Part shown: piece by piece, positions 6,181 through 27,741 of the stretch
Numbering within the stretch: position 1 is the stretch's first letter
Layout: each line of letters starts with the position of its first letter
Source of the DNA: a virus
Taxonomy: Duplodnaviria > Caudoviricetes
Reading direction: 5' to 3' (one strand)
Length of the DNA stretch: 27,741 bases
Virus record (IMG/VR): IMGVR_UViG_3300009684_001214
Coordinates: 1 to 27,741 of that record
Program-made: the position numbers and the translations under genes
The notes under the pieces: generated by a model
Seen by the model: only the letters and a program-made list of their open reading frames with translations
What the model was told of the DNA's origin: nothing
Database searches by the model: none

Positions 6181-6282
6181 CCCACCTTAGGGACCGTTGT
6201 CGTCACGGGTGTGAGCTTGCTCACACAGGCGTCCGCGCAATTGAACTGTCAGGCGTACTTGACGGGAGATAAAGTAACTCCC
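6181..6282 (+). ncRNA. Candidate structured intergenic RNA, family unknown
   Basis: GC-rich island with consecutive hairpins: CCGT/ACGG (6194-6208), GTGTGAG-CTTG-CTCACAC (6209-6226), GTCAGG-CGTA-CTTGAC (6248-6263), GGGAG/CTCCC (6264-6282). Confidence 0.5.
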
Positions 6283-6283
6283 A

Positions 6284-6290
6284 CTAAATA
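6284..6290 (+). promoter_or_regulatory. T4-late-like promoter CTAAATA
   Basis: Same TAAATA core found before many genes here; only 4 nt before ATG 6295, with no SD. Confidence 0.55.
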
Positions 6291-6294
6291 CACG

Positions 6295-6900
6295 ATGCGA
6301 GCACAAGAATTCATCCCCGAAGGTATACATCAAGATGTGGCTATAGACCCTAGTGATAGAGCGTCTTCTGACCCTTTATATTACCAGTCTATAGACAGCA
6401 GATTTGTTAATAATATGTTGCATCAGCATTATAGAGGTAAAACGGAGATTGATCCAAAATCTCCTGCTGCTGAACGTATTAAAACATTAGACAAAATTTT
6501 TAAAAGATTCAATTTGTCTAAACCAGCAAAAGTTTATACAGGAATACCCGTAAGTGTTGAACATGCTTATAAAAAATACAAAGCTGATCGTTCTAAACCA
6601 ATTAGGTTACACTTACCTGCTTATACTAGTACATCAACTAAGTTGCAACAAGCACACAAATTTGGTTCCGCGGGTGGAAATAATTTACTAATGATAGAAC
6701 TTCCAATTGGAACACCTGCTGTAAGTCTTAAAAAAATAAGTAGGCACGCTCAAGAAAACGAAGTTTTATTACCAAGAGGAATGGACATTGAGGTTCAACC
6801 AACACCAAATGTTATTGAGAAGAATGGCGAAAAAATTTATGTTTGGAAAGCGGTAGCATTAGGTCATTCACCAATACAAATATTTCAGGATAAGGCATGA
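6295..6900 (+). CDS. ADP-ribosyltransferase (R-S-E clade, VIP2/T4 Alt-like); start re-assigned to ATG 6295
   Basis: KVYTGI (strand 1, Arg position is Thr), PAYTSTS (STS motif) and QENEVLLPRG (E-x-E). The upstream GTG extension (6211) runs through a structured GC-rich region, while MRAQEFIPE matches the N-termini of neighbouring genes. Confidence 0.8.
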   Translation: MRAQEFIPEGIHQDVAIDPSDRASSDPLYYQSIDSRFVNNMLHQHYRGKTEIDPKSPAAERIKTLDKIFKRFNLSKPAKVYTGIPVSVEHAYKKYKADRSKPIRLHLPAYTSTSTKLQQAHKFGSAGGNNLLMIELPIGTPAVSLKKISRHAQENEVLLPRGMDIEVQPTPNVIEKNGEKIYVWKAVALGHSPIQIFQDKA

Positions 6901-7706
6901 GAATAACAGAACTATTATCTGAAACTCAAGAGGCAATTGAAAAACTTCCATCTACTGGATATACCGGTGGAAAAAAGTCATTATATGTGCCTACCCAGTT
7001 CAAATCTGATGTTACAAAAGAGTTGCCAGGTGGTAGTGGATACTTATACACAATAGGGCCTGGGCAGTATGGCACTGATATACAAATATGGGATCCTAAA
7101 GGACCGGACTATATCAATTCACAAACGCCGCCGGTCAAGAAACCTCGAGAGTCAGATGGGGCTTATAACGAAAGAGTTCAATATTGGGAGTATGCCAATA
7201 AACGAGCATTAAAAACTCCTGGGCAATTGATTGGCAAATTGTCGATTACACCAGCGGACACAAGGACAAGCCATTTCCCATTACCCAACGCAGTAAGAGT
7301 TGATACTATTACAGTTGATGAAGACTATCGTGGCCGGGGTATTGCTAAAGCATTATACGGTATTGTATTAACTATTATGCAAGTGCCATTGGTTGCTGGA
7401 ACTAGTCAAACAGCCGGCGGCCGTCAAATGTGGGTTAGCCTGGCTAGTATACCCGGCGCTAAGATAAAAGGGTATGTTGGGTTAGAAACTTATGATCTAA
7501 ATTCTCGTAATATTGATACAGTCATGGGTCAATTGGGTGGTGAACATCTTGGCCAGGCCCAAGATGGGGAAAGATTTTTTACATTTGATGTACAACCTAA
7601 CTCAACTGGGAAAGAATTAGAGGCTTATGTCAAAACTTCGTTGAGTAAAATATATGGCAGTGGTCAATATAATTCTGGACTATATGCAACTTGGGGTGGC
7701 GCATGA
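6897..7706 (+). CDS. GNAT-family acetyltransferase domain protein
   Basis: VDTITVDEDYRGRGIAKALY is acetyl-CoA-binding motif A, followed by QTAGGRQMW; ATGA overlap with the upstream gene. Confidence 0.8.
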   Translation: MRITELLSETQEAIEKLPSTGYTGGKKSLYVPTQFKSDVTKELPGGSGYLYTIGPGQYGTDIQIWDPKGPDYINSQTPPVKKPRESDGAYNERVQYWEYANKRALKTPGQLIGKLSITPADTRTSHFPLPNAVRVDTITVDEDYRGRGIAKALYGIVLTIMQVPLVAGTSQTAGGRQMWVSLASIPGAKIKGYVGLETYDLNSRNIDTVMGQLGGEHLGQAQDGERFFTFDVQPNSTGKELEAYVKTSLSKIYGSGQYNSGLYATWGGA

Positions 7707-8107
7707 AAATCACAGAATTATTAATTGAAGGTCAAGAATCTCGAGCAACATTTGTTGACATGTTCAAAAAGTTCCTACCCTTGGCCATGGAAGTTCTAGA
7801 GATTGACAGTCTTCCCAAGATGGACTTTGAACCTGAGATACACACAGGCAGTCAGCCCAGCTTTGGTATGTATGTTAACGGCGAGAAAACTCTACATGTG
7901 GCAATACTTAATCGTCACCCTGTAGATATACTCAGAACAGTAGCACACGAACTAGTTCATTATCGTCAAGACATTAGGGATGAACTCAACGATGAAAGTG
8001 GTGCCACTGGTAGTCCCGAAGAAAATCAAGCACATGAGATAGCCGGAGTTGTTATGCGTCACTTTAATAAACGCTATCCCGAATTCTTACGCAGCAGGCC
8101 AATATAA
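7703..8107 (+). CDS. HExxH zincin-like metallopeptidase domain protein; start re-assigned to ATG 7703
   Basis: ILRTVAHELVHYRQ plus downstream EENQAH; ATGA overlap with the GNAT stop; N-terminus MKITELLIE. Confidence 0.75.
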   Translation: MKITELLIEGQESRATFVDMFKKFLPLAMEVLEIDSLPKMDFEPEIHTGSQPSFGMYVNGEKTLHVAILNRHPVDILRTVAHELVHYRQDIRDELNDESGATGSPEENQAHEIAGVVMRHFNKRYPEFLRSRPI

Positions 8108-8685
8108 TGAAACTGGTTTACATACATGGCGCCAGCGCCACAAGTGAGAGCTTTAATCATATTAAAGAACATCTGGGCGGTGATAGCCTATGTATCAATT
8201 ACAACAGCGCTGATGGTTTTGAAAACAATCTTCAAACCATGCAAACTACATTGGCTGAAGAAACGGATATATTCTTTATTGCTCATAGTCTAGGAGGCAT
8301 ATATTCGCTACACCTAGCCAATGCTATGCCCACACAGGTGCTAGGCGCAGTCACTTTAAGCACTCCTTATGGTGGTGCAGAACATGCAGATTTTGCCAGG
8401 TACTTCTTGCCCTTTAGTCGCCTGCTAAAAGATATTGGTCCACTCAGCTGGCCCATGAGACAGGCTGATAATATTGAAATCAAACACCCCTGGTGTAATA
8501 TTGTCACTGTTAAAGGCAATACACCGTGGATACAAGGGGCAAATGACGGAGTAGTAACAGTTGCTAGCCAACGCCATCATAGTCGAGGAATGGAACTAAT
8601 TGAAGTTGATTATAATCATTATGAAGTAGTGCTTAGTGAACAGGTGATTGATATAATTAAACAACGTATCAGATTACACAAATAG
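8107..8685 (+). CDS. Alpha/beta hydrolase (lipase/esterase-like)
   Basis: YIHGA oxyanion segment, AHSLGG nucleophile elbow, LSTPYGG, NDGVV and C-terminal NH complete a Ser-Asp-His triad; TAATG overlap. Confidence 0.88.
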   Translation: MKLVYIHGASATSESFNHIKEHLGGDSLCINYNSADGFENNLQTMQTTLAEETDIFFIAHSLGGIYSLHLANAMPTQVLGAVTLSTPYGGAEHADFARYFLPFSRLLKDIGPLSWPMRQADNIEIKHPWCNIVTVKGNTPWIQGANDGVVTVASQRHHSRGMELIEVDYNHYEVVLSEQVIDIIKQRIRLHK

Positions 8686-8710
8686 AAAAAGTCCCTTTCG
8701 GGACTTTTTC
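8685..8710. terminator. Bidirectional intrinsic terminator
   Basis: GAAAAAGTCCC-TTTC-GGGACTTTTTC perfect inverted repeat between convergent genes. Confidence 0.9.
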
Positions 8711-8763: not shown

Positions 8764-9054
8764 TTATTTTTTAGAGGTTTTAGATGCGGTAGCTACACCT
8801 TGATTAACAAAGCTATACATCTTTTCAGCAGTTTCTAGAACTTTATCAAGTCCTGGAAATTCTGGCATTGCTACGGATGTAACAATTTGACCGGTCTTCT
8901 CATCACGAGTAGCGGTCATCTCCCATCCTTGAAATTTAGCATGGAAGTCTTCTTTTACCAAGTCTTTGGCCATACCAAGAATATCTGTACGAATTTCGTA
9001 ACCATTCTTGTTGAATTTAACTTCTGGCAATTTTGGGGTATCATGTAGTGACAT
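8764..9054 (-). CDS. Hypothetical protein (96 aa, MSLHDTPKLPEVKFNKNGYEIR...); start re-assigned
   Basis: Strong AAGGAGA RBS before minus-strand ATG 9054; late-type CTAAATA at 9119-9113. Confidence 0.8.
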   Translation of the reverse strand: MSLHDTPKLPEVKFNKNGYEIRTDILGMAKDLVKEDFHAKFQGWEMTATRDEKTGQIVTSVAMPEFPGLDKVLETAEKMYSFVNQGVATASKTSKK

Positions 9055-9107
9055 ATTATTCTCCTTGTGTGTAATGTCTGTGTGTAAACAGTAACTAATT
9101 TTACTGT

Positions 9108-9212
9108 CTAAGTATTTAGTATACACAGATTGACTGTGTAATACAACTGAAGTGAGTCATTTAGTTTCGGGTATCTTACCGCGTCGTCTGTCATTGGTAT
9201 CCATTGATTCAT
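9108..9212 (-). CDS. Possible 34-aa micro-ORF (MNQWIPMTDDAVRYPK...)
   Basis: ATG overlaps the TAA of the upstream micro-ORF (TAATG) with AAAGGA nearby; the 3' part runs into the promoter/hairpin region, so it is uncertain. Confidence 0.35.
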   Translation of the reverse strand: MNQWIPMTDDAVRYPKLNDSLQLYYTVNLCILNT

Positions 9213-9349
9213 TAGATCCATCCTTTAAAATCTTCCATCATGACACGTTTGGCGCCGGCATAATCTCCGCTTTGTGCAAGATGTGTAGCAGCACGAACAC
9301 GTCCAATGTTTTCTAAAAAGTTATAGATTGACGTTAGTATAACTTTCAT
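9212..9349 (-). CDS. 45-aa micro-ORF (MKVILTSIYNFLENIGRVRAATHLAQSGDYAGAKRVMMEDFKGWI)
   Basis: Manually translated; starts 2 nt after the upstream stop; amphipathic helical pattern. Confidence 0.7.
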   Translation of the reverse strand: MKVILTSIYNFLENIGRVRAATHLAQSGDYAGAKRVMMEDFKGWI

Positions 9350-9351
9350 AA

Positions 9352-9525
9352 TTACCATCCGCGTCCTGATTGTTTCAAGTCAAATTGACGAGTAAGACGA
9401 TCCACGTCACATGAATTTTGTGGCGAATTTCTAACAATGTATTCTTCTAGTGCAGATCCGTAAGTTTGTGGCTGTTCAAATCTCTGAAACATCTTTTGAA
9501 AGTATTCAACTAGTTGGTTTAACAT
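9352..9525 (-). CDS. 57-aa small protein, possibly DUF3563-like (MLNQLVEYFQKMFQRFEQPQTYGSALEEYIVRNSPQNSCDVDRLTRQFDLKQSGRGW)
   Basis: Strong AAGGAGA RBS; TATAAATA at 9592-9585 on the minus strand. The E-x-Y...D-V-D-R-L-x-R-x-F-D pattern recalls DUF3563 (family assignment from memory only). Confidence 0.75.
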   Translation of the reverse strand: MLNQLVEYFQKMFQRFEQPQTYGSALEEYIVRNSPQNSCDVDRLTRQFDLKQSGRGW

Positions 9526-11243: not shown

Positions 11244-11450
11244 ATGAAGATTCATCAGCTATTATCTGGTATCAGAATTCCTGTCACCAATGAGGAACAG
11301 CAGTTCATAAACAAACATGATACACGGATCAGACTGACCAGCTTGGATGAACACGATCAATGGACAGCACAAAATTTAGTGCGCAAGGGCATTTACACCA
11401 TGAGCTCAGACAGCAGTATGCTAATTAAGAATCTAAATGAAACCCATTAA
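11244..11450 (+). CDS. Hypothetical protein
   Basis: 68-aa ORF tightly packed between its neighbours. Confidence 0.7.
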   Translation: MKIHQLLSGIRIPVTNEEQQFINKHDTRIRLTSLDEHDQWTAQNLVRKGIYTMSSDSSMLIKNLNETH

Positions 11451-11932: not shown

Positions 11933-13309
11933 ATGAAAACTACAGATTTTACACGCAAGATTACCAGCGCTAAACTAAAAGAAAATTTAGAAAAACGTTT
12001 TGGTACCAATGTCAATCTAACCAAGTACAACCGTGAGCAGTTGGAAGACATTCGTAACAAGTTCCGCACAAAGATCTTCCAACAGGAAGGTAGTGCAGGT
12101 ATTAACGATCTGTTGGCCAATGAAACATATCAAAAAGACAAAGCAATGTTAGAGTTGCTCAACACAAGGATTAAAGAAATGCTAGGCGAAAACCTTAAAC
12201 AATTAAAAAACAAAATGATCGAACTTAGCGAGGCTAAGAAATCTAAACCTGACTTCCTTGACATGGATAAAGATGGTGACAAGAAAGAGCCAATGAAGAA
12301 AGCTATTGCTGATAAGAAAGTTAAAGAAGGCTTTCCTACAGTAGCAGATGCAAAAGCTCGTGCTGAGAAAGAAAAGACCACTGGTAAGTTTGACAAGAAG
12401 CAAACAAGCACAGGTACCGTTTATACACGCAAATCAAGCACATTTGACAATGGTACTGAAGACAAACCAAAGTCAAAGAAAGTTAAAGAAGCTTTTCCTA
12501 CAGTGGCTAGCGCTCGTGCCGAACATGAAAAGAACAAAACCACTGGCAAGTTTGATAAAAAGACAACCAGTACAGGTGATGTATATACACGTAAGTCCAG
12601 CACATTTGACAATGGTACTGAAGACAAACCAAAGTCAAAGAAAACTGGCAAAGCCGTGGCAGAAGAACTAAAAGGCAAGCAAGGCAAACTTGATGTTGAC
12701 CATGACGGCAAGTTGGAAAAGAGCGACTTTGCTGCTCTACGTGCCAAGAAGAAGGTCAAGGAGTCTACCATGTTCAAGCAAAATGTGCGTTTTGTTAACG
12801 AAAGCATTGGTTATCTATTGAGCGAAGACGAAGAAGGTAAGGCCAAGGCCATTACTGCTGCCGGTGACATGGTTAACGATTTTACAAGTTGGATGCAACG
12901 TGTTGGGCAATACCAAACCAAGAGCATGATTGAGTTGTCAGATGCTATCCGTGCAGACTTTGGTCCAGCAGAAGCAGAAGCATTCAAGCAGGCAGTTGGA
13001 CCAGCATTGAGCGCTACACTAGAAGTATTGACACAGCAACGCGAAGCAGTAAGTAATGCTGTTGCAGCATTGGCCGGCGAAGCAGTTCCTGAAGAGCCAA
13101 TGGGAATGGAACCAGAAATGCCTCCAGAACCAGGTATGGACATGAGCGAGCCAGACATGATGAATCCAGAACCAGAAGACGAATTTGGCGCTAGCGATGC
13201 TGCTGCTGGAATGGGTACTACTGGACGTGAGATGCGTGAAAGCCGTGAGCAAGTTCGTGCTCGTAAATTGGCCGAATCACACAGCATCATGAGTAAGTTG
13301 GCTCGATGA
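11933..13309 (+). CDS. Highly charged protein, putative prohead core/scaffold-like, with EF-hand-like DxDxDG motifs and an internal duplication
   Basis: Lys/Glu-rich; DMDKDGD and DVDHDGK motifs; many (L/I/V)-x-E sites; acidic Pro/Met-rich linker; late promoter. The function is inferred. Confidence 0.65.
   Translation: MKTTDFTRKITSAKLKENLEKRFGTNVNLTKYNREQLEDIRNKFRTKIFQQEGSAGINDLLANETYQKDKAMLELLNTRIKEMLGENLKQLKNKMIELSEAKKSKPDFLDMDKDGDKKEPMKKAIADKKVKEGFPTVADAKARAEKEKTTGKFDKKQTSTGTVYTRKSSTFDNGTEDKPKSKKVKEAFPTVASARAEHEKNKTTGKFDKKTTSTGDVYTRKSSTFDNGTEDKPKSKKTGKAVAEELKGKQGKLDVDHDGKLEKSDFAALRAKKKVKESTMFKQNVRFVNESIGYLLSEDEEGKAKAITAAGDMVNDFTSWMQRVGQYQTKSMIELSDAIRADFGPAEAEAFKQAVGPALSATLEVLTQQREAVSNAVAALAGEAVPEEPMGMEPEMPPEPGMDMSEPDMMNPEPEDEFGASDAAAGMGTTGREMRESREQVRARKLAESHSIMSKLAR
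12314..12643 (+). repeat. Tandem 162-nt (54-aa) in-frame duplication
   Basis: KKVKE[G/A]FPTVA...KTTGKFDKK.TSTG.VYTRKSSTFDNGTEDKPKSKK occurs twice; 45 nt are identical at 12437-12481 and 12599-12643. Confidence 0.95.
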
Positions 13310-13662
13310 AATTATTTGAAGTTGACATGGGGTCTGCTAGAGACGTTCTAGCAGTGCTTCAAGGGTTGGCCAATAAAGATCAGCAACAATCTAATTTGCC
13401 GTTTCCTGTTGCACAAAATATTTTTAAATCTTTTGGTTATGCACTAGGTGACGGTGATAGGGATAGCGTTGAAATCCTTAAGAAATTAAAGAACGAAGTT
13501 GACCCCGAAGGTAATGTTATTGCTGACATTACCGACAATGCTGAAATTGTGCTAAACACCAATACACCCAGCGATCAAGCAGGTGGACAGATCAAACAGG
13601 CCACTGGTCCCAGTGTGGATCAAATGGCTGCTGGCAACAAAGATTTATCTCCAAAAATTTGA
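13306..13662 (+). CDS. Hypothetical protein
   Basis: ATGA overlap with the upstream gene; N-terminus MKLFEVD. Confidence 0.75.
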   Translation: MKLFEVDMGSARDVLAVLQGLANKDQQQSNLPFPVAQNIFKSFGYALGDGDRDSVEILKKLKNEVDPEGNVIADITDNAEIVLNTNTPSDQAGGQIKQATGPSVDQMAAGNKDLSPKI

Positions 13663-16903: not shown

Positions 16904-19240
16904 ATGACAATGATCAACGTGATCAAACGAGATGGGGTCAAAGTGCCCTTAGATATTTCTAAAATACAAAGACAAGTAGCTCATGCTTGCAGCGGTATAG
17001 ACGGGGTTAGTCCCAGTATGATTGAGATCAAAGCGCAAATAGAATTGCACGATGGCATGAGCACAAAAACTATAGACGAGCTCTTGCTCAAGGCCATGGT
17101 TAACCTAATTGATGAAAGTGAAAACCCCGAAATCAATAATGTCAACTATCAATTTGTAGCAGGTAGACAGCGTGTGTCTATGTTACGTAAAGAAGTCTAC
17201 GATAGTTATACACCTCCTAAACTCTACAGCATTGTAAAACGTAACATAGAACGTGGTATGTATACTCCAGAATTACTGGAGTGGTATACAGAAGATGAGT
17301 GGAATATCATTGACTTGTTTATTGATCATGACAAGGATGAAAAATATACCTATGCTGCTATTGCACAACTTACTGAAAAGTACCTGGTACAAAATCGTGC
17401 CACTGGCGAAGTATTTGAGACTCCACAAGTTCGTTACGCTATCGCCGCTGCCACTGCATTTCATAACGAGCCAAAAGAAACAAGGTTAAAATGGGTCAAG
17501 GAATATTACGAGTGTGGAAGTGATGGACACTTTACCTTGGCCACTCCAGTCTTGGCCGGTCTAGGAACTACCACTAGACAATTCAGCTCATGTGTACTGA
17601 TAAGTGCAGATGACACTCTTGACAGTATCTTTGCTAGCGGCGAAATGATGGCCAAATATGCCTCAAAACGAGCCGGAATTGGCCTAGAAATTGGTAGAAT
17701 TCGCCCGTTAGGTGCACCAATTCGCAATGGTGAAATCAAACACACGGGTATGATACCCTTTCTTAAAAAATGGTTTGCAGATTTGAGATCATGCAGTCAG
17801 GGCGGAATTCGTAATGCGTCATGCACAGTAACTTTCCCCATTTGGCATTATCAGTTCGAAGATCTTATTGTATTAAAAAACAATCAAGGCACTGATGAAA
17901 CTCGTGTACGCCAAATGGATTACTCAGTAGTGGTCAATAGAATGTTTTGGAATCGTTACAAGCGTGGCGAAACAATGAGCCTGTTTGATCCGCACGATGT
18001 TCCAGACCTATACGAAGCCTACTATCGCAGCACGGAAGAATTTGAAGCACTATACTTGAACTATGAGAAGCATCCGACAATTAAAAAGAAAATCGTATCG
18101 GCAGATGAGATATTCAAAAATGGAATCCTTAAAGAAAGGACTGATACTGGGCGCATATATCTTGTCAACATCGACAACGTCATCGCACAAGGTCCGTTTG
18201 ACACAACTCTTGATCCCATATATCAATCAAACCTATGCCAGGAGATACTTTTACCCACCCGTCCTTTCCAAAGAATTGAAGACCCAGATGGGCGCATTGC
18301 TCTTTGTACTCTTGGCAGCATAAACTGGGGTGCATTTCGTAACCCGCAAGAAATGCGTAAGGCTTGCAGAGTTCTAGTACGCAGTCTGAGTAATTTGTTA
18401 AGCTATCAAGATTTCTTAAGCATTCAAAGTAAACTGGCCAATGATGAATTTGAACCACTAGGTGTGGGCATTACTAATCTAGCCTACTGGCATGCACGTA
18501 AGAGTTTTAAATACGGTGAACCGGAAGCACTTGCAGAAGTCAAGCGTTGGATGGAACATCAAGCATTTTACCTAACAGAAACCAGTGTCGAGCTTGCCCA
18601 AGAACGTGGCGCCTGCAAACGTAGTGAATTTACTTACTATGGCAAGGGTGTATTTCCTTGGGAACGTCGTGCAGCAGGTAGTAACGAACTAACTGACTTT
18701 ACACCTAGCCTAGATTGGGAACCATTACGTGCTCGTATAATCAAGTATGGTATTCGTAATGCCACCTTAATGGCCGTGGCACCGGTTGAGTCCAGCTCAG
18801 TTGTACTTAACAGTACTAACGGAATTGAAATGCCAATGGAACTTATTAGTGTCAAGGAATCAAAAGCCGGATCATTTGTACAAGTAGTGCCAGAATACAG
18901 ACGATTAAAGAATCGTTACCAACTTATGTGGGATCAAAAAGACTGTGTTGACTATCTCAAAACCAGTGCAGTGTTAGCAGTATACATCGATCAAAGTCTA
19001 AGTACCAATACATTCTACAGTCCCAAGCATTTTAAAGATGGTAAGGTTCCCGGGACATTGATTGCCAAGAACTTGATGTTAGCATACAAGTGGGGCTTGA
19101 AAACGATTTATTATAGTCTCATAGACAAGGTTGGGAGTAAGAATATATTGACTACTCAAAGTGATAGATTGATTACGGCAGAACCTGTTGCAATATATAC
19201 TGAACCAGAGGATGAGGATTGTTTGGCCTGTAAGTTATGA
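16904..19240 (+). CDS. nrdA: Ribonucleoside-diphosphate reductase class Ia alpha subunit with ATP cone
   Basis: VIKRDG ATP cone, FSSC, SNLCQEI (N-x-C-x-E), ALCTL, KTIYY and C-terminal CLAC; GTAAATA at 16868-16874 upstream. Confidence 0.97.
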   Translation: MTMINVIKRDGVKVPLDISKIQRQVAHACSGIDGVSPSMIEIKAQIELHDGMSTKTIDELLLKAMVNLIDESENPEINNVNYQFVAGRQRVSMLRKEVYDSYTPPKLYSIVKRNIERGMYTPELLEWYTEDEWNIIDLFIDHDKDEKYTYAAIAQLTEKYLVQNRATGEVFETPQVRYAIAAATAFHNEPKETRLKWVKEYYECGSDGHFTLATPVLAGLGTTTRQFSSCVLISADDTLDSIFASGEMMAKYASKRAGIGLEIGRIRPLGAPIRNGEIKHTGMIPFLKKWFADLRSCSQGGIRNASCTVTFPIWHYQFEDLIVLKNNQGTDETRVRQMDYSVVVNRMFWNRYKRGETMSLFDPHDVPDLYEAYYRSTEEFEALYLNYEKHPTIKKKIVSADEIFKNGILKERTDTGRIYLVNIDNVIAQGPFDTTLDPIYQSNLCQEILLPTRPFQRIEDPDGRIALCTLGSINWGAFRNPQEMRKACRVLVRSLSNLLSYQDFLSIQSKLANDEFEPLGVGITNLAYWHARKSFKYGEPEALAEVKRWMEHQAFYLTETSVELAQERGACKRSEFTYYGKGVFPWERRAAGSNELTDFTPSLDWEPLRARIIKYGIRNATLMAVAPVESSSVVLNSTNGIEMPMELISVKESKAGSFVQVVPEYRRLKNRYQLMWDQKDCVDYLKTSAVLAVYIDQSLSTNTFYSPKHFKDGKVPGTLIAKNLMLAYKWGLKTIYYSLIDKVGSKNILTTQSDRLITAEPVAIYTEPEDEDCLACKL

Positions 19241-19785
19241 CCTATAGTTTTATTAAATCAATCCTTAACGAGGAACAACAGTCAGGCGAGAAACTCAAGC
19301 AGATCAAACTGCCATATGCTCGCGGTGACTTAGATCCTGCTATATCAGAAGATACCATCAACTACCATTATGGTAAGTTGTATAAAGGATATGTGGATCG
19401 TTACAACAGTAAAGAAGGTGATGCTGATTTTAATGAAGCCGGTGCATTCTTACACAGCATCTTGTTTGCGCAGTATCAAGCACCCGCACAAAAGAATGAG
19501 CCCACTGGTGCTATTGCAGAATTTATCAACAAACACTACAGTGGTGGATTCAAAGAGTTTAAAGAACAATTTGAAAAAGCAGCTATGGCGATACAAGGAA
19601 GCGGTTGGGTCTATTTGGCCAAGAACGGACAGGTAAAAACAATTAAGAATCATCAAATCAAGAGTGATATTGTATTGTTAGTTGATTGGTGGGAACACTC
19701 GTGGGCCTTGGACTATCAAGCAGACAAGAAAAAGTATTTAGAGAACCAGTGGAAAATTATCAACTGGGCAAACATAACAGTTTAA
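19237..19785 (+). CDS. sod: Fe/Mn superoxide dismutase
   Basis: LPYARGDLDPAISEDTINYHY, FLH, GSGWVYL and DWWEH retain the four metal ligands (His, His, Asp, His). Confidence 0.9.
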   Translation: MTYSFIKSILNEEQQSGEKLKQIKLPYARGDLDPAISEDTINYHYGKLYKGYVDRYNSKEGDADFNEAGAFLHSILFAQYQAPAQKNEPTGAIAEFINKHYSGGFKEFKEQFEKAAMAIQGSGWVYLAKNGQVKTIKNHQIKSDIVLLVDWWEHSWALDYQADKKKYLENQWKIINWANITV

Positions 19786-21526: not shown

Positions 21527-21934
21527 ATGACAACTAAAAAATTATGGGATAGCATAGATGGTGCTGCATTAAAAAGTTTGCCTAATGCAGCAAAAGGTTA
21601 CGAACAAAGGATCGTTATACCAGAATTTACATTCTTAGGTGTGCATGATCAACCCGACTTTGGAGTAATCACCATTTGGTATTATGGCAAGGATAGAACT
21701 ATTGAATTAAAGAGTTTGAAAGAATACTTATTTCAATATAGAGATACTGTAATCAGTTACGAACGTTGTTTGGATGTGTTTTACAAACACCTGATCAGTG
21801 CTTACGAACCAGACCGTGTACGTATAGAAATTGATTTTAGACCAAGAGGTGGTATTTCAAGTCGATTAACAGTTGATAGCGATTGGGGACACTTAGGTGG
21901 AACTGATCAATATTGGCAACATCATAAAAATTAA
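21527..21934 (+). CDS. queF: QueF (preQ0 reductase) type-I homologue lacking the catalytic cysteine
   Basis: PEFT, QPDF, IELKSLKEYL (QueF motif), SYE and FRPRGGIS all match unimodular QueF; EFTFLGVHDQPD replaces EFTSLCPxTGQPD. Confidence 0.85.
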   Translation: MTTKKLWDSIDGAALKSLPNAAKGYEQRIVIPEFTFLGVHDQPDFGVITIWYYGKDRTIELKSLKEYLFQYRDTVISYERCLDVFYKHLISAYEPDRVRIEIDFRPRGGISSRLTVDSDWGHLGGTDQYWQHHKN

Positions 21935-21940
21935 AGAAAA

Positions 21941-23227
21941 ATGGATTATAAAATTAAAGACATATCCCTGGCTGCATGGGGACACAAAGAAATAGCAGTG
22001 GCAGAATCAGAAATGCCAGGCCTAATGACTATCTTGAAAGAATATCAAGCCAGTCAACCTCTAGCAGGTGCTCGTATTGTAGGTTCACTACACATGACTA
22101 TTCAAACTGCTGTGCTGGTCAAAGTGCTAGTGGCTCTTGGTGCAAGTGTTCGTTGGAGTAGCTGCAATATTTTCTCAACACAGGATCATGCTGCTGCGGC
22201 CATTGCCGATCTAGGTATTCCGGTGTTTGCTTGGAAAGGCGAAACTGAAGAAGAATACTGGTGGTGTATTGAACAAACAGTACGTGGTCCAGATGGCTGG
22301 GAACCAAACATGATTCTTGATGACGGACATGACTTGACCTGGTGGATTCACGATCGACATCCTGATCTGCTTGATGGTATTCGTGGTGTCAGTGAAGAAA
22401 CTACTACAGGTATATATAGAATTAAAGAAGCTATTGCAGCAGGTACATTTAAACTACGTGCATTCAATGTCAACGATAGCGTTACCAAGACCAAGTTTGA
22501 CAACCTGTATGGTTGCCGGGAAAGTCTAGTTGATGGTATCAAACGTGCAACTGACGTAATGATTGCCGGTAAGGTTGCAGTTGTTGCCGGCTACGGTGAC
22601 GTAGGCAAAGGTTCTGCACAGGCCCTGCGAGCATTGAGCGCACAGGTCTGGGTTACTGAAGCTGATCCAATCTGTGCCCTACAGGCTGCTATGGAAGGCT
22701 ATCGTGTTGTCACCATGGACTATGCCGCTGACAAGGCTGATATCTTTGTAACTGCTACAGGTAACATCAATGTTATTACTAGAGCACACATGGAACAGAT
22801 GAAAGATCAAAGCATTGTTTGTAACATTGGACACTTTGATAATGAGATTGATGTAGCAGCCCTGGCCGACTGTGAGTGGGACGAAATCAAGCCACAAGTG
22901 GATCACGTTATCTTCCCCAGTGGTAAGCGTATTATCCTATTGGCCAAAGGTCGCTTGGTAAATCTTGGTTGCGGTACAGGACATCCTAGTTTTGTAATGA
23001 GCAACAGTTTTACCAATCAAGTTCTAGCACAAATGGAACTATGGAATCATAGCGACCGGTACAACGTAGGTGAGTTATATATCCTACCCAAACATCTAGA
23101 TGAAAAAGTTGCCAGTTTGCACTTGAGTAAAATTGGTGCCGAACTGACTCGGCTAACTGACGAACAGGCCAAGTATATCGGTGTTGGGTTAGATGGTCCA
23201 TTCAAGCCAGAAACCTACAGATATTAA
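21941..23227 (+). CDS. ahcY: Adenosylhomocysteinase (SAH hydrolase)
   Basis: [69 protein letters not shown] and C-terminal YRY. Confidence 0.98.
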
Positions 23228-25798: not shown

Positions 25799-26689
25799 AT
25801 GAAAAGAGTATGGCTTTTACATCACGCCAGCGGAATAACTGCTTATGAAAATACAAGATTACTTGAATGTCTTGAACAAAATGGTATCAAAGGTGAAATA
25901 TTTGAACCCAGGTACTTTGACATTATTGTTAACCGCGGCAATGCCAAGAGTATTAGATACAAGGGCGAAAAGATTGATTTACCTGATTTGATACTAAGTC
26001 GCACTGGTTCTGGTAGTGCTTATTTTACCCTGGCACTGATGAGACAGTTTGAAAAATTGGGTGTTCCTGTTATTAACGATGCCGAGAGTGTGGCAATAGT
26101 AAGTGATAAATTAATGACCAGCCAGGCTTTGGCCAGTGCTGGATTACCTATCCCCAAGACAATACTAGTTAATGGTGATGTTGATGTTGAGTTGATTGAA
26201 AAAGAAATTGGCTTTCCCTGCGTGGTAAAAGCCACTAGTGGTTCAAGAGGCAAAACAGTATATCTATGTGAGACACGTAAGATTTTTGAAGGCCTAATGG
26301 AATTGCTGTCAAGCATTGCATTGAAAAAGACATTGATTATACAGGAGTTTGTTGATGCCATGCCAGGCACTGATCTACGTGTATGGGTCATTGGTGGCAA
26401 AAGTATTATTGCCATGAAGCGCACCGGTGCAGATGGAGACTTTCGTGCTAATATAAGCACAGGAGGCACAGGCGAATTATTTGATATTACACCAGAGATT
26501 GATTACATTGCTAGAGAAACAGCAAGAGTATTGGGATTACAAATTGCAGGTATTGACCTGTTATTTGATAAAGATGGTTATAAGGTATGCGAAGCAAACT
26601 CCAGCCCTGGTTTCAAAGGCATGGATAAATACTGTGGTCAAGACATGGCACAGCATATAGTAGATTTTGTAAAATTAAAGTTACAATAA
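25799..26689 (+). CDS. RimK-family ATP-grasp alpha-L-glutamate ligase
   Basis: DKL..Q.LA..GLPIPKT, PCVVK, GSRG, IQEFV, DLRVWVIGG, FRANISTGG, GIDLL and EANSSPG. Confidence 0.92.
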   Translation: MKRVWLLHHASGITAYENTRLLECLEQNGIKGEIFEPRYFDIIVNRGNAKSIRYKGEKIDLPDLILSRTGSGSAYFTLALMRQFEKLGVPVINDAESVAIVSDKLMTSQALASAGLPIPKTILVNGDVDVELIEKEIGFPCVVKATSGSRGKTVYLCETRKIFEGLMELLSSIALKKTLIIQEFVDAMPGTDLRVWVIGGKSIIAMKRTGADGDFRANISTGGTGELFDITPEIDYIARETARVLGLQIAGIDLLFDKDGYKVCEANSSPGFKGMDKYCGQDMAQHIVDFVKLKLQ

Positions 26690-27470: not shown

Positions 27471-27584
27471 TTTAACACACACTGAGAAGCCTGGGTCAGG
27501 AAAGAGGAGTAAGGCTGTATGGTCGTAGACGGGTTGTATATGCCCTAGAAGGTATGCAAGTGCTCTTTCATTATGTGTGTTAAA
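27471..27584 (+). ncRNA. Candidate ~114-nt small RNA, family unknown
   Basis: Starts at the predicted +1 of the perfect promoter; 11-bp closing stem TTTAACACACA/TGTGTGTTAAA; internal stems CCTG/CAGG, TGTATG/TATGCA, GGGT/GCCC; no credible ORF. Confidence 0.6.
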
Positions 27585-27591
27585 TAAGAGT

Positions 27592-27741
27592 TATTGTTGT
27601 ATGAAGTAGATTGAAAAAGATTCAAGACTCGGGGGCAGTGCCCGACATCTCCACCATAAGCAGTTTGGGTCATATGTTATAAGTCCATAGTGCATTCATA
27701 TACAAGACTGTTTCTGATGGGGATGACACAGGATCGATTGA
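27592..27741 (+). ncRNA. ssrA: Circularly permuted (two-piece) tmRNA gene: acceptor piece ending CCA 27656, intervening sequence, coding piece starting 27719 (truncated by window end)
   Basis: GAC-TCGGG-GGCAGTG-CCCGA-CATCTCC-A-CCA (27626-27656) lies upstream of GGGGATG-ACACAGGATCGA-TTGA (27719-27741). The acceptor stem GGGGATG/CATCTCC has G3-U70, and TTGA pairs with TCAA (helix 2a). The 5' boundary is estimated from TAAATA 27581-27586. Confidence 0.88.

Follow-up and report, generated by a model that had tools for sequence, protein, structure and literature searches.

Unrelated enzymes of an uncultured jumbo phage share a short N-terminal tag resembling the capsid-targeting leader of T4

Results

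Genes at the locus

The window analysed here is the entire 27.7-kb viral record IMGVR_UViG_3300009684_001214 of IMG/VR (27,741 nucleotides), and it carries on its plus strand three overlapping open reading frames (ORFs) for unrelated enzymes that begin with similar nine-residue peptides, hereafter the tags. The ORFs encode an ADP-ribosyltransferase-like protein (ART, 6295-6900, start MRAQEFIPE), a predicted GNAT acetyltransferase (6897-7706, start MRITELLSE) and a small protein with an HExxH motif (7703-8107, start MKITELLIE). ATGA overlaps join ART to GNAT and GNAT to the HExxH gene, and a TAATG overlap joins the latter to a plus-strand alpha/beta hydrolase gene (8107-8685, PF12697), an untagged neighbour that stands outside the tagged set. 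A TAAATA box on the plus strand, the predicted late promoter (6285-6290), lies 4 nt upstream of the first ATG, and an 11-bp hairpin resembling a bidirectional intrinsic terminator is found at 8685-8710, with no strand assigned to it. The first-pass annotation, made from the sequence alone, had described the three translationally coupled enzyme ORFs with their tags, promoter and terminator, and we confirmed the ORFs, their coordinates and their families.

Synteny links the window to the stretch at 148-166 kb of Pseudomonas phage PA5oct. In G005, a complete relative of 322.5 kb, the HExxH gene (66%) and a gene at 11933 (55%) both have homologues, which follow in the same order, and the G005 capsid protein is 68-71% identical to the capsid proteins of CBB, GAP32, Phosso and Vibrio 2.275.O. 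On this synteny and similarity, the window phage is therefore classed as an uncultured Rak2/PA5oct-like, T4-related jumbo phage; its best sequence match is a freshwater metagenome. A gp21-family protease (PF03420) and a PF07068 capsid protein are encoded both in G005 and in another relative, G001.

The N-terminal tag

The tag occurs at protein starts well beyond chance. When N-termini were scanned in five sequences for the strict pattern M[KR]xx[ED][FLIV][LIVFM]xE, it was found at 17 of 813 called starts and at none of 3,695 internal methionines. The starts had been called by a caller blind to the motif, and the counts (3/37 in the window, 5/226 in G001, 2/97 in G002, 2/60 in G003 and 5/393 in G005) are not independent, since G002, G003 and the window have common orthologues. 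A looser pattern matched 373 of 3,165 unique proteins, falling into 59 clusters, in a set of 185 loci and genomes that was gathered by homology to window genes, so that orthologues of the HExxH gene are over-counted. Among 98 tagged representatives, Pfam domains included GNAT, Kinase-PolyVal, GH19, LysM, SLT, M23, phage lysozyme and PG-binding, and also NT5C, poly(A)/CCA polymerase and deaminase; the majority had no Pfam match. Over 99 distinct tags, synonymous codons vary about as much as they do in the genomes, and the tag is therefore conserved as a peptide. The comparison thus bears out the earlier claim of a portable tag carried by unrelated late-type genes.

In the T4 record, the internal proteins IPII and IPIII begin MKTYQEFIAE and Alt begins MELITELFDE. 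The ART tag (6295-6321) fits the IPII/IPIII form, and the tags of GNAT (6897-6923) and of the HExxH protein (7703-7729) fit the Alt form; all three are read from the plus strand. The consensus site of the T4 prohead protease is (I/L)-x-E, and in the HExxH tag Glu9 is kept in 90% or more of cases, with residues 2-7 variable. In structure models of ART and the HExxH protein the tags are the least confident segments, low-confidence tails with a predicted local distance difference test score (pLDDT) of 35 for residues 1-10 of ART and 52 for residues 1-10 of the HExxH protein. Two conserved small genes elsewhere in the window, at 11244-11450 (MKIHQLLSG) and 13306-13662 (MKLFEVDMG), have looser tag-like starts that the first reading had missed.

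The late promoter

Because the TAAATA box lies only 4 nt from the ATG, a leaderless transcript is predicted. The hexamer is not over-represented by count in this search (22 seen vs 32.7 expected), and its support is therefore positional. TAAATA precedes many late-type genes, and in related loci its spacing to the ATG falls into two classes, one of 4-7 nt (leaderless) and one of about 16-30 nt, with a peak at 4-5 nt. The 4-7 nt class holds 69 of 256 tagged vs 117 of 2,909 untagged genes, a comparison in which the gene caller favours the class; it rewards a TAAATA located 2-9 nt before a start, so that the leaderless class is partly built in and the 4-5 nt peak is not. The late-type promoter proposed in the first-pass annotation hence stands by its position and not by enrichment in count. 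Leaderless late genes seem common in the clade, judging from these spacings, and a scan for sigma-70 promoters gave results at chance level (13 vs 11.8). In CBB, ATAAATA was predicted to be the late promoter (PMC5259590).

Anchor and insertions

Sixty-three of 65 distinct HExxH homologues with at least 50% identity are tagged. Most of the 65 (53) lie directly behind TAAATA (within 9 nt) and five have no visible promoter; the other seven are separated from it by one or two inserted genes, and eight of these nine inserts are tagged. ART was found in only three IMG/VR loci, in one of them within another tagged array, and GNAT also occurs at other tagged arrays in relatives. Contigs of two public sequencing runs join position 6298 to 6901, and thus lose ART exactly from start to start, and contigs of three runs skip the hydrolase; these joints were taken at likeness 85, and the contigs may come from related phages. 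From this pattern, the HExxH gene appears as the conserved anchor of the locus and ART and GNAT as optional insertions. The three genes, of which ART and GNAT come and go, are thus not a fixed cassette. Three conserved small genes on the minus strand (8764-9525) mark the boundary of this slot in most relatives.

We also considered the hydrolase as a member of the cassette and rejected it. None of its 18 homologues is tagged, ten of them have a leaderless TAAATA of their own, often on the other strand, and the gene is skipped in the three runs mentioned above. It lies directly downstream of the HExxH gene in 3 of 65 cases.

The three enzymes

The ART matches PF03496 (E 2e-14), and a Foldseek search matched its model at E about 1e-10 to the Alt/VIP2/C3-like fold of the R-S-E clade. 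Residues T111 and S112 of its S-T-S motif and E154 and E156 of its E-x-E motif are invariant in 16 of 16 homologues. The GNAT match is modest (PF00583, E 1e-4, 22.9 bits, just over the cut-off of 20.7), and a PDB sequence search gave no match. Its acetyl-CoA motif A is intact (YRGRGIA), with R-G-x-G-[IL]-A present in 14 of 17 homologues, and all 17 are tagged.

The HExxH protein matches phrog_87 (E 3e-4), and H82, E83, H86 and E107 are invariant, as in a minimal zincin. Foldseek returned only weak matches for its confident model, none at E 0.001, and yet the best structural matches are all zincins (1oz9, Z 8.5; 7bb8, Z 8.3; Wss1, Z 8.2), superposed with root-mean-square deviations of 2.8-3.4 over 106-110 residues. 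According to the model, the protein has a gluzincin-type zincin fold with a downstream Glu ligand, and is a putative peptidase. The top fold match is a YbeY-family protein, and YbeY entries also occupy ranks 4 and 10; the fold alone therefore does not fix the class of substrate.

Sites at domain junctions

Among 319 proteins of at least 200 aa from G001, G002 and G005, the pattern [ILV]-x-E-[SGADN], the candidate cut site, reaches its highest densities, 3.99 and 3.97 per 100 aa, in the two genes that lie between the protease and the capsid gene and that by their position we infer to be scaffold; the G001 protease ranks third. Close to their N-termini, both the capsid protein and the protease of G001, G005, PA5oct and CBB have an [LF]-x-E. 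In the window, the gene at 11933-13309 (plus strand) encodes a likely head-core protein, 458 aa of lysine-rich repeats with nine [ILV]-x-E-small sites at the repeat borders. It is a homologue of a PA5oct virion protein, and its patterns recur in about 670 stored stretches.

The same sites are found where domains are joined. The window genes each encode a single domain, but in 222 longer relatives the HExxH domain is fused to ART-PolyVal, GNAT, HAD, GH19, deaminase and other domains, and 20 of the 65 close homologues of the HExxH protein exceed 200 aa. In 120 listed relatives, a site lies in the linker before the HExxH domain in 42 of 56 cases and after it in 57 of 64, vs 11.6% of random windows. 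Another module, NFADG, is preceded by 51 distinct upstream contexts, every one of which ends in Glu; in 44 of them the ending is hydrophobic-x-Glu, the middle residue being free (background 1.6%), and none retains the front of the tag. Only the tail of the tag is thus kept at the joints, as would be expected for a selected cut site. The NFADG module itself comprises ~55 aa, has no Pfam match and ends many unrelated tagged proteins (P0078, P0092, P0100 and others), and it can also stand alone as a tagged gene. Among the fused forms, those at L005:1775-7828, L096:9395-13045 and L090:9950-13339 are polyvalent-type proteins of 1,100-2,000 aa in which HExxH is combined with GNAT, deaminase, CCA/poly(A) polymerase, NT5C or GH19.

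Discussion

We favour, as the probable explanation, that the tag is a T4-type address and cut leader, by which the enzymes are packaged, trimmed and ejected into the next host. According to this model, the front of the tag, M-[KR]-[AI]-x-[EQ]-[FL], would serve as an address that binds the prohead core, and its tail, hydrophobic-x-Glu, as a site at which a T4-type prohead protease would cut after the Glu. The tagged genes would be transcribed late and leaderless from TAAATA, and the trimmed enzymes would be ejected with the DNA into the next host, where the payload would most likely modify host proteins by ADP-ribosylation, acetylation and proteolysis and, in relatives, open the cell wall. Between the promoter and the HExxH anchor, tagged genes would be gained and lost, or they would become fused to the anchor as polyvalent-type chains, which the prohead protease would then split back into single domains. 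An anti-defence role for this payload is doubtful; a search of PADLOC gave no match. NCBIfam yielded nothing informative.

The principle has long been known from the capsid-targeting sequence (CTS) of T4 and its injected proteins IPI, IPIII and Alt (PMC3012670, PMC9958956, PMC5694885, bioRxiv 10.1101/2022.04.14.488369), from injected ARTs and from polyvalent proteins (PMC5512222, Iyer et al. 2017; PMC7824862 and PMC9503650, which with it also treat head-packaged ARTs). In T4 the prohead protease gp21 removes the CTS from IPII and IPIII, and the propeptides from IPI and Alt. The best reading by analogy is that the feature works like the T4 CTS acting on a polyvalent-type payload, with packaging and cleavage predicted. 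As in T4, about ten N-terminal residues end in Glu, in a QEFI-x-E form like that of IPII/IPIII or with ITEL as in Alt, unrelated cargo stands behind one leader (PMC3012670), and a gp21-family protease is encoded in the clade. Unlike in T4, the tag is one residue shorter, it is spread over about 59 families whereas T4 uses it on a few, the cargo consists largely of enzymes, many of the genes are leaderless, and the tail of the tag recurs at internal domain joints; its function in the clade is a prediction. With polyvalent proteins the system has in common an MPTase hub, ART, GNAT, kinase and lysozymes, and relatives fuse HExxH with ART-PolyVal and GNAT, whereas the window genes are solo rather than several domains on one polypeptide. 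Head and ejection proteins of the giant phages SPN3US and phiKZ are likewise cut after Glu (PMC5694885, PMC10052503; for SPN3US processing see the latter). However, those phages belong to a different lineage and have long propeptides with A/S-x-E motifs, unlike the short and uniform tags of this clade.

Several observations weigh against this explanation. Packaging, cleavage and ejection of the tagged proteins are predictions from sequence, and virion data from cultured relatives, which carry few tags, range from suggestive to uninformative (PMC7318152, PMC5259590, PMC7247149). The PA5oct record lists 93 proteins detected by mass spectrometry (MS), 92 of which we matched to 373 gene calls. Two of four strict-tag proteins are in the virion (p 0.26), a tag profile gave three of four at its loosest threshold (p 0.048) and no significance at other thresholds, and a loose pattern gave 5 of 8 vs 87 of 365 (p 0.024), the pattern having been chosen post hoc. 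The PA5oct list is not purely structural, because it includes metabolic enzymes. In CBB, with the pattern fixed beforehand, the single tagged gene was not among the MS proteins (0/1, covering 95-345 kb, that is 250 of 378 kb, and 42 of 55 MS proteins); this result is uninformative, since CBB lacks the tag expansion. Hydrophobic-x-Glu was not enriched at the N-termini of virion proteins in PA5oct or CBB. On the supporting side, the tag-like gene located after the portal gene is orthologous to a protein of the PA5oct virion whose own start is MKINDIITE.

The cut sites call for similar caution. Internal sites are no denser in tagged proteins of at least 200 aa than in untagged ones of that length (p 0.49). 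In favour of a cut site, bodies of tagged solo genes that recur within longer proteins have the site at 69 of 112 junction clusters, and bodies of untagged genes at 17 of 139. One joint can enter these clusters in several registers, so that they are not fully independent, and the junction motifs may partly be inherited remnants of the tag of the downstream gene. On the number of T4 proteins that use the CTS reviews disagree, and one of them finds it conserved only in IPII and IPIII (PMC9958956). No isolate encodes the ART, only one weak isolate match was found for GNAT, and the HExxH protein was matched in only three cyanophages; PA5oct and CBB have no homologue of any of the three enzymes.

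A further point against the model concerns the ART, which had been likened to T4 Alt. The likeness holds for the fold, the S-T-S and E-x-E motifs and an N-terminal propeptide. It fails for length (201 aa vs 682) and for the Arg of the first strand, which is absent in the whole ART family: the 16 homologues that were aligned all have Thr or Ser in its place (16 of 16). Alt-like activity therefore cannot be assumed, and from its conserved residues the window ART is best described as a protein of Alt-like fold that is not a canonical R-S-E member.

An alternative, which we regard as rather unlikely, is that the tag belongs to proteins of the head core, or associated with the head, which are trimmed as the head matures but are not ejected, with the enzymes acting in assembly, for instance on proteins of the phage, or late in the producing cell. 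Several tagged conserved small genes without an enzyme domain do reside in head or virion modules, the 458-aa protein at 11933 resembles degradable core material, and T4 gp24 is not ejected although it, too, is shortened by a 10-residue peptide (PMC9958956). Yet what varies within the tagged set are host-acting and wall-degrading domains known from polyvalent proteins (PMC5512222), and their rapid gain and loss suits conflict with the host better than it suits assembly.

One may also ask which protease does the cutting. As constant member of the locus and hub of the fusions, with invariant zinc ligands, the HExxH anchor could itself be the Glu-specific protease that cuts both the tags and the junctions, either within the head or once injected, a role that has been proposed for the MPTases of polyvalent proteins (PMC5512222). 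We consider this improbable, as the motif is densest in the proteins at the scaffold position, it is found close to the N-terminus of the protease and of the capsid protein, which holds too for PA5oct and CBB, two phages that gave no HExxH match, and junction sites border modules other than HExxH as well.

That the tag is a handle for translation initiation or recombination with no part in packaging, namely a 5' coding sequence that favours leaderless and coupled genes and also allows genes to be swapped, is very improbable even though tagged genes are often leaderless or coupled, the breakpoint of the ART loss falls within the start's first four bases, and non-homologous tags have synonymous codons in common more often within a locus (260/387) than across loci (10,356/17,982; the pairs are not independent, and the codon bias of the genomes was left in), since conservation is at the peptide level, 117 untagged genes, the hydrolase among them, are leaderless too, and hydrophobic-x-Glu at internal joints would be left unexplained.

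If the address-and-cut model is true, virion-delivered effectors of uncultured jumbo phages could be predicted from a short motif, which would yield a list of candidates for early-acting host takeover or counter-defence, most of the tagged families having no Pfam match. The assembly of polyvalent proteins from solo modules, and the identity of the protease that releases them, would become testable questions. With this in mind one may speculate further, on a view that is possible and that we would on balance not bet on, about a two-part code, run by this abundant jumbo-phage clade, in which an address stands at the start of the gene and a head-protease site at each module border. Effectors would move between solo genes, the slot and polyvalent chains, the prohead protease and not their own MPTase would cut the polyvalent proteins, and the injected proteome would be readable from sequence; the ART, as an active Thr/Ser-S-E variant, would act on a new target.

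Other features of the window

A conserved structured RNA-like element of 98 nt with two hairpins and a likely pseudoknot adjoins the promoter on its upstream side (6185-6282, plus strand). It had no Rfam match, and the folding of the single sequence is unremarkable (z -1.16). The collected loci hold 37 distinct copies, and about 140 IMG/VR stretches show the pattern, in several gene contexts. Compensatory changes support 11 of 23 proposed pairs, with 94.4% of cells paired: both hairpins covary fully, the 3-bp pseudoknot has one compensatory pair, and the proposed helices 2 and 3 have no compensatory support in the alignment. Some loci have a second 3' form. A literature search, made mostly without subscription journals, found no paper describing this element in the clade (large lists of candidate RNAs were left aside), nor one describing the tag or the leaderless late arrangement there. 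TAAATA and a tagged gene follow only 25 of 82 distinct copies of the element. The idea of a dedicated leader of the cassette was thus rejected, and since its copies lie mostly in other contexts, the element is likely, on comparative grounds, an independent small RNA outside the tag system.

Elsewhere in the window, genes for a Fe/Mn superoxide dismutase, a QueF-like protein, an S-adenosylhomocysteine hydrolase and a RimK-like protein lie beside nrdA/nrdB (19237-19785, 21527-23227 and 25799-26689), and a permuted, two-piece tmRNA (27542-27741) is truncated by the end of the contig. The PA5oct homologue of the superoxide dismutase is present in the PA5oct virion list.

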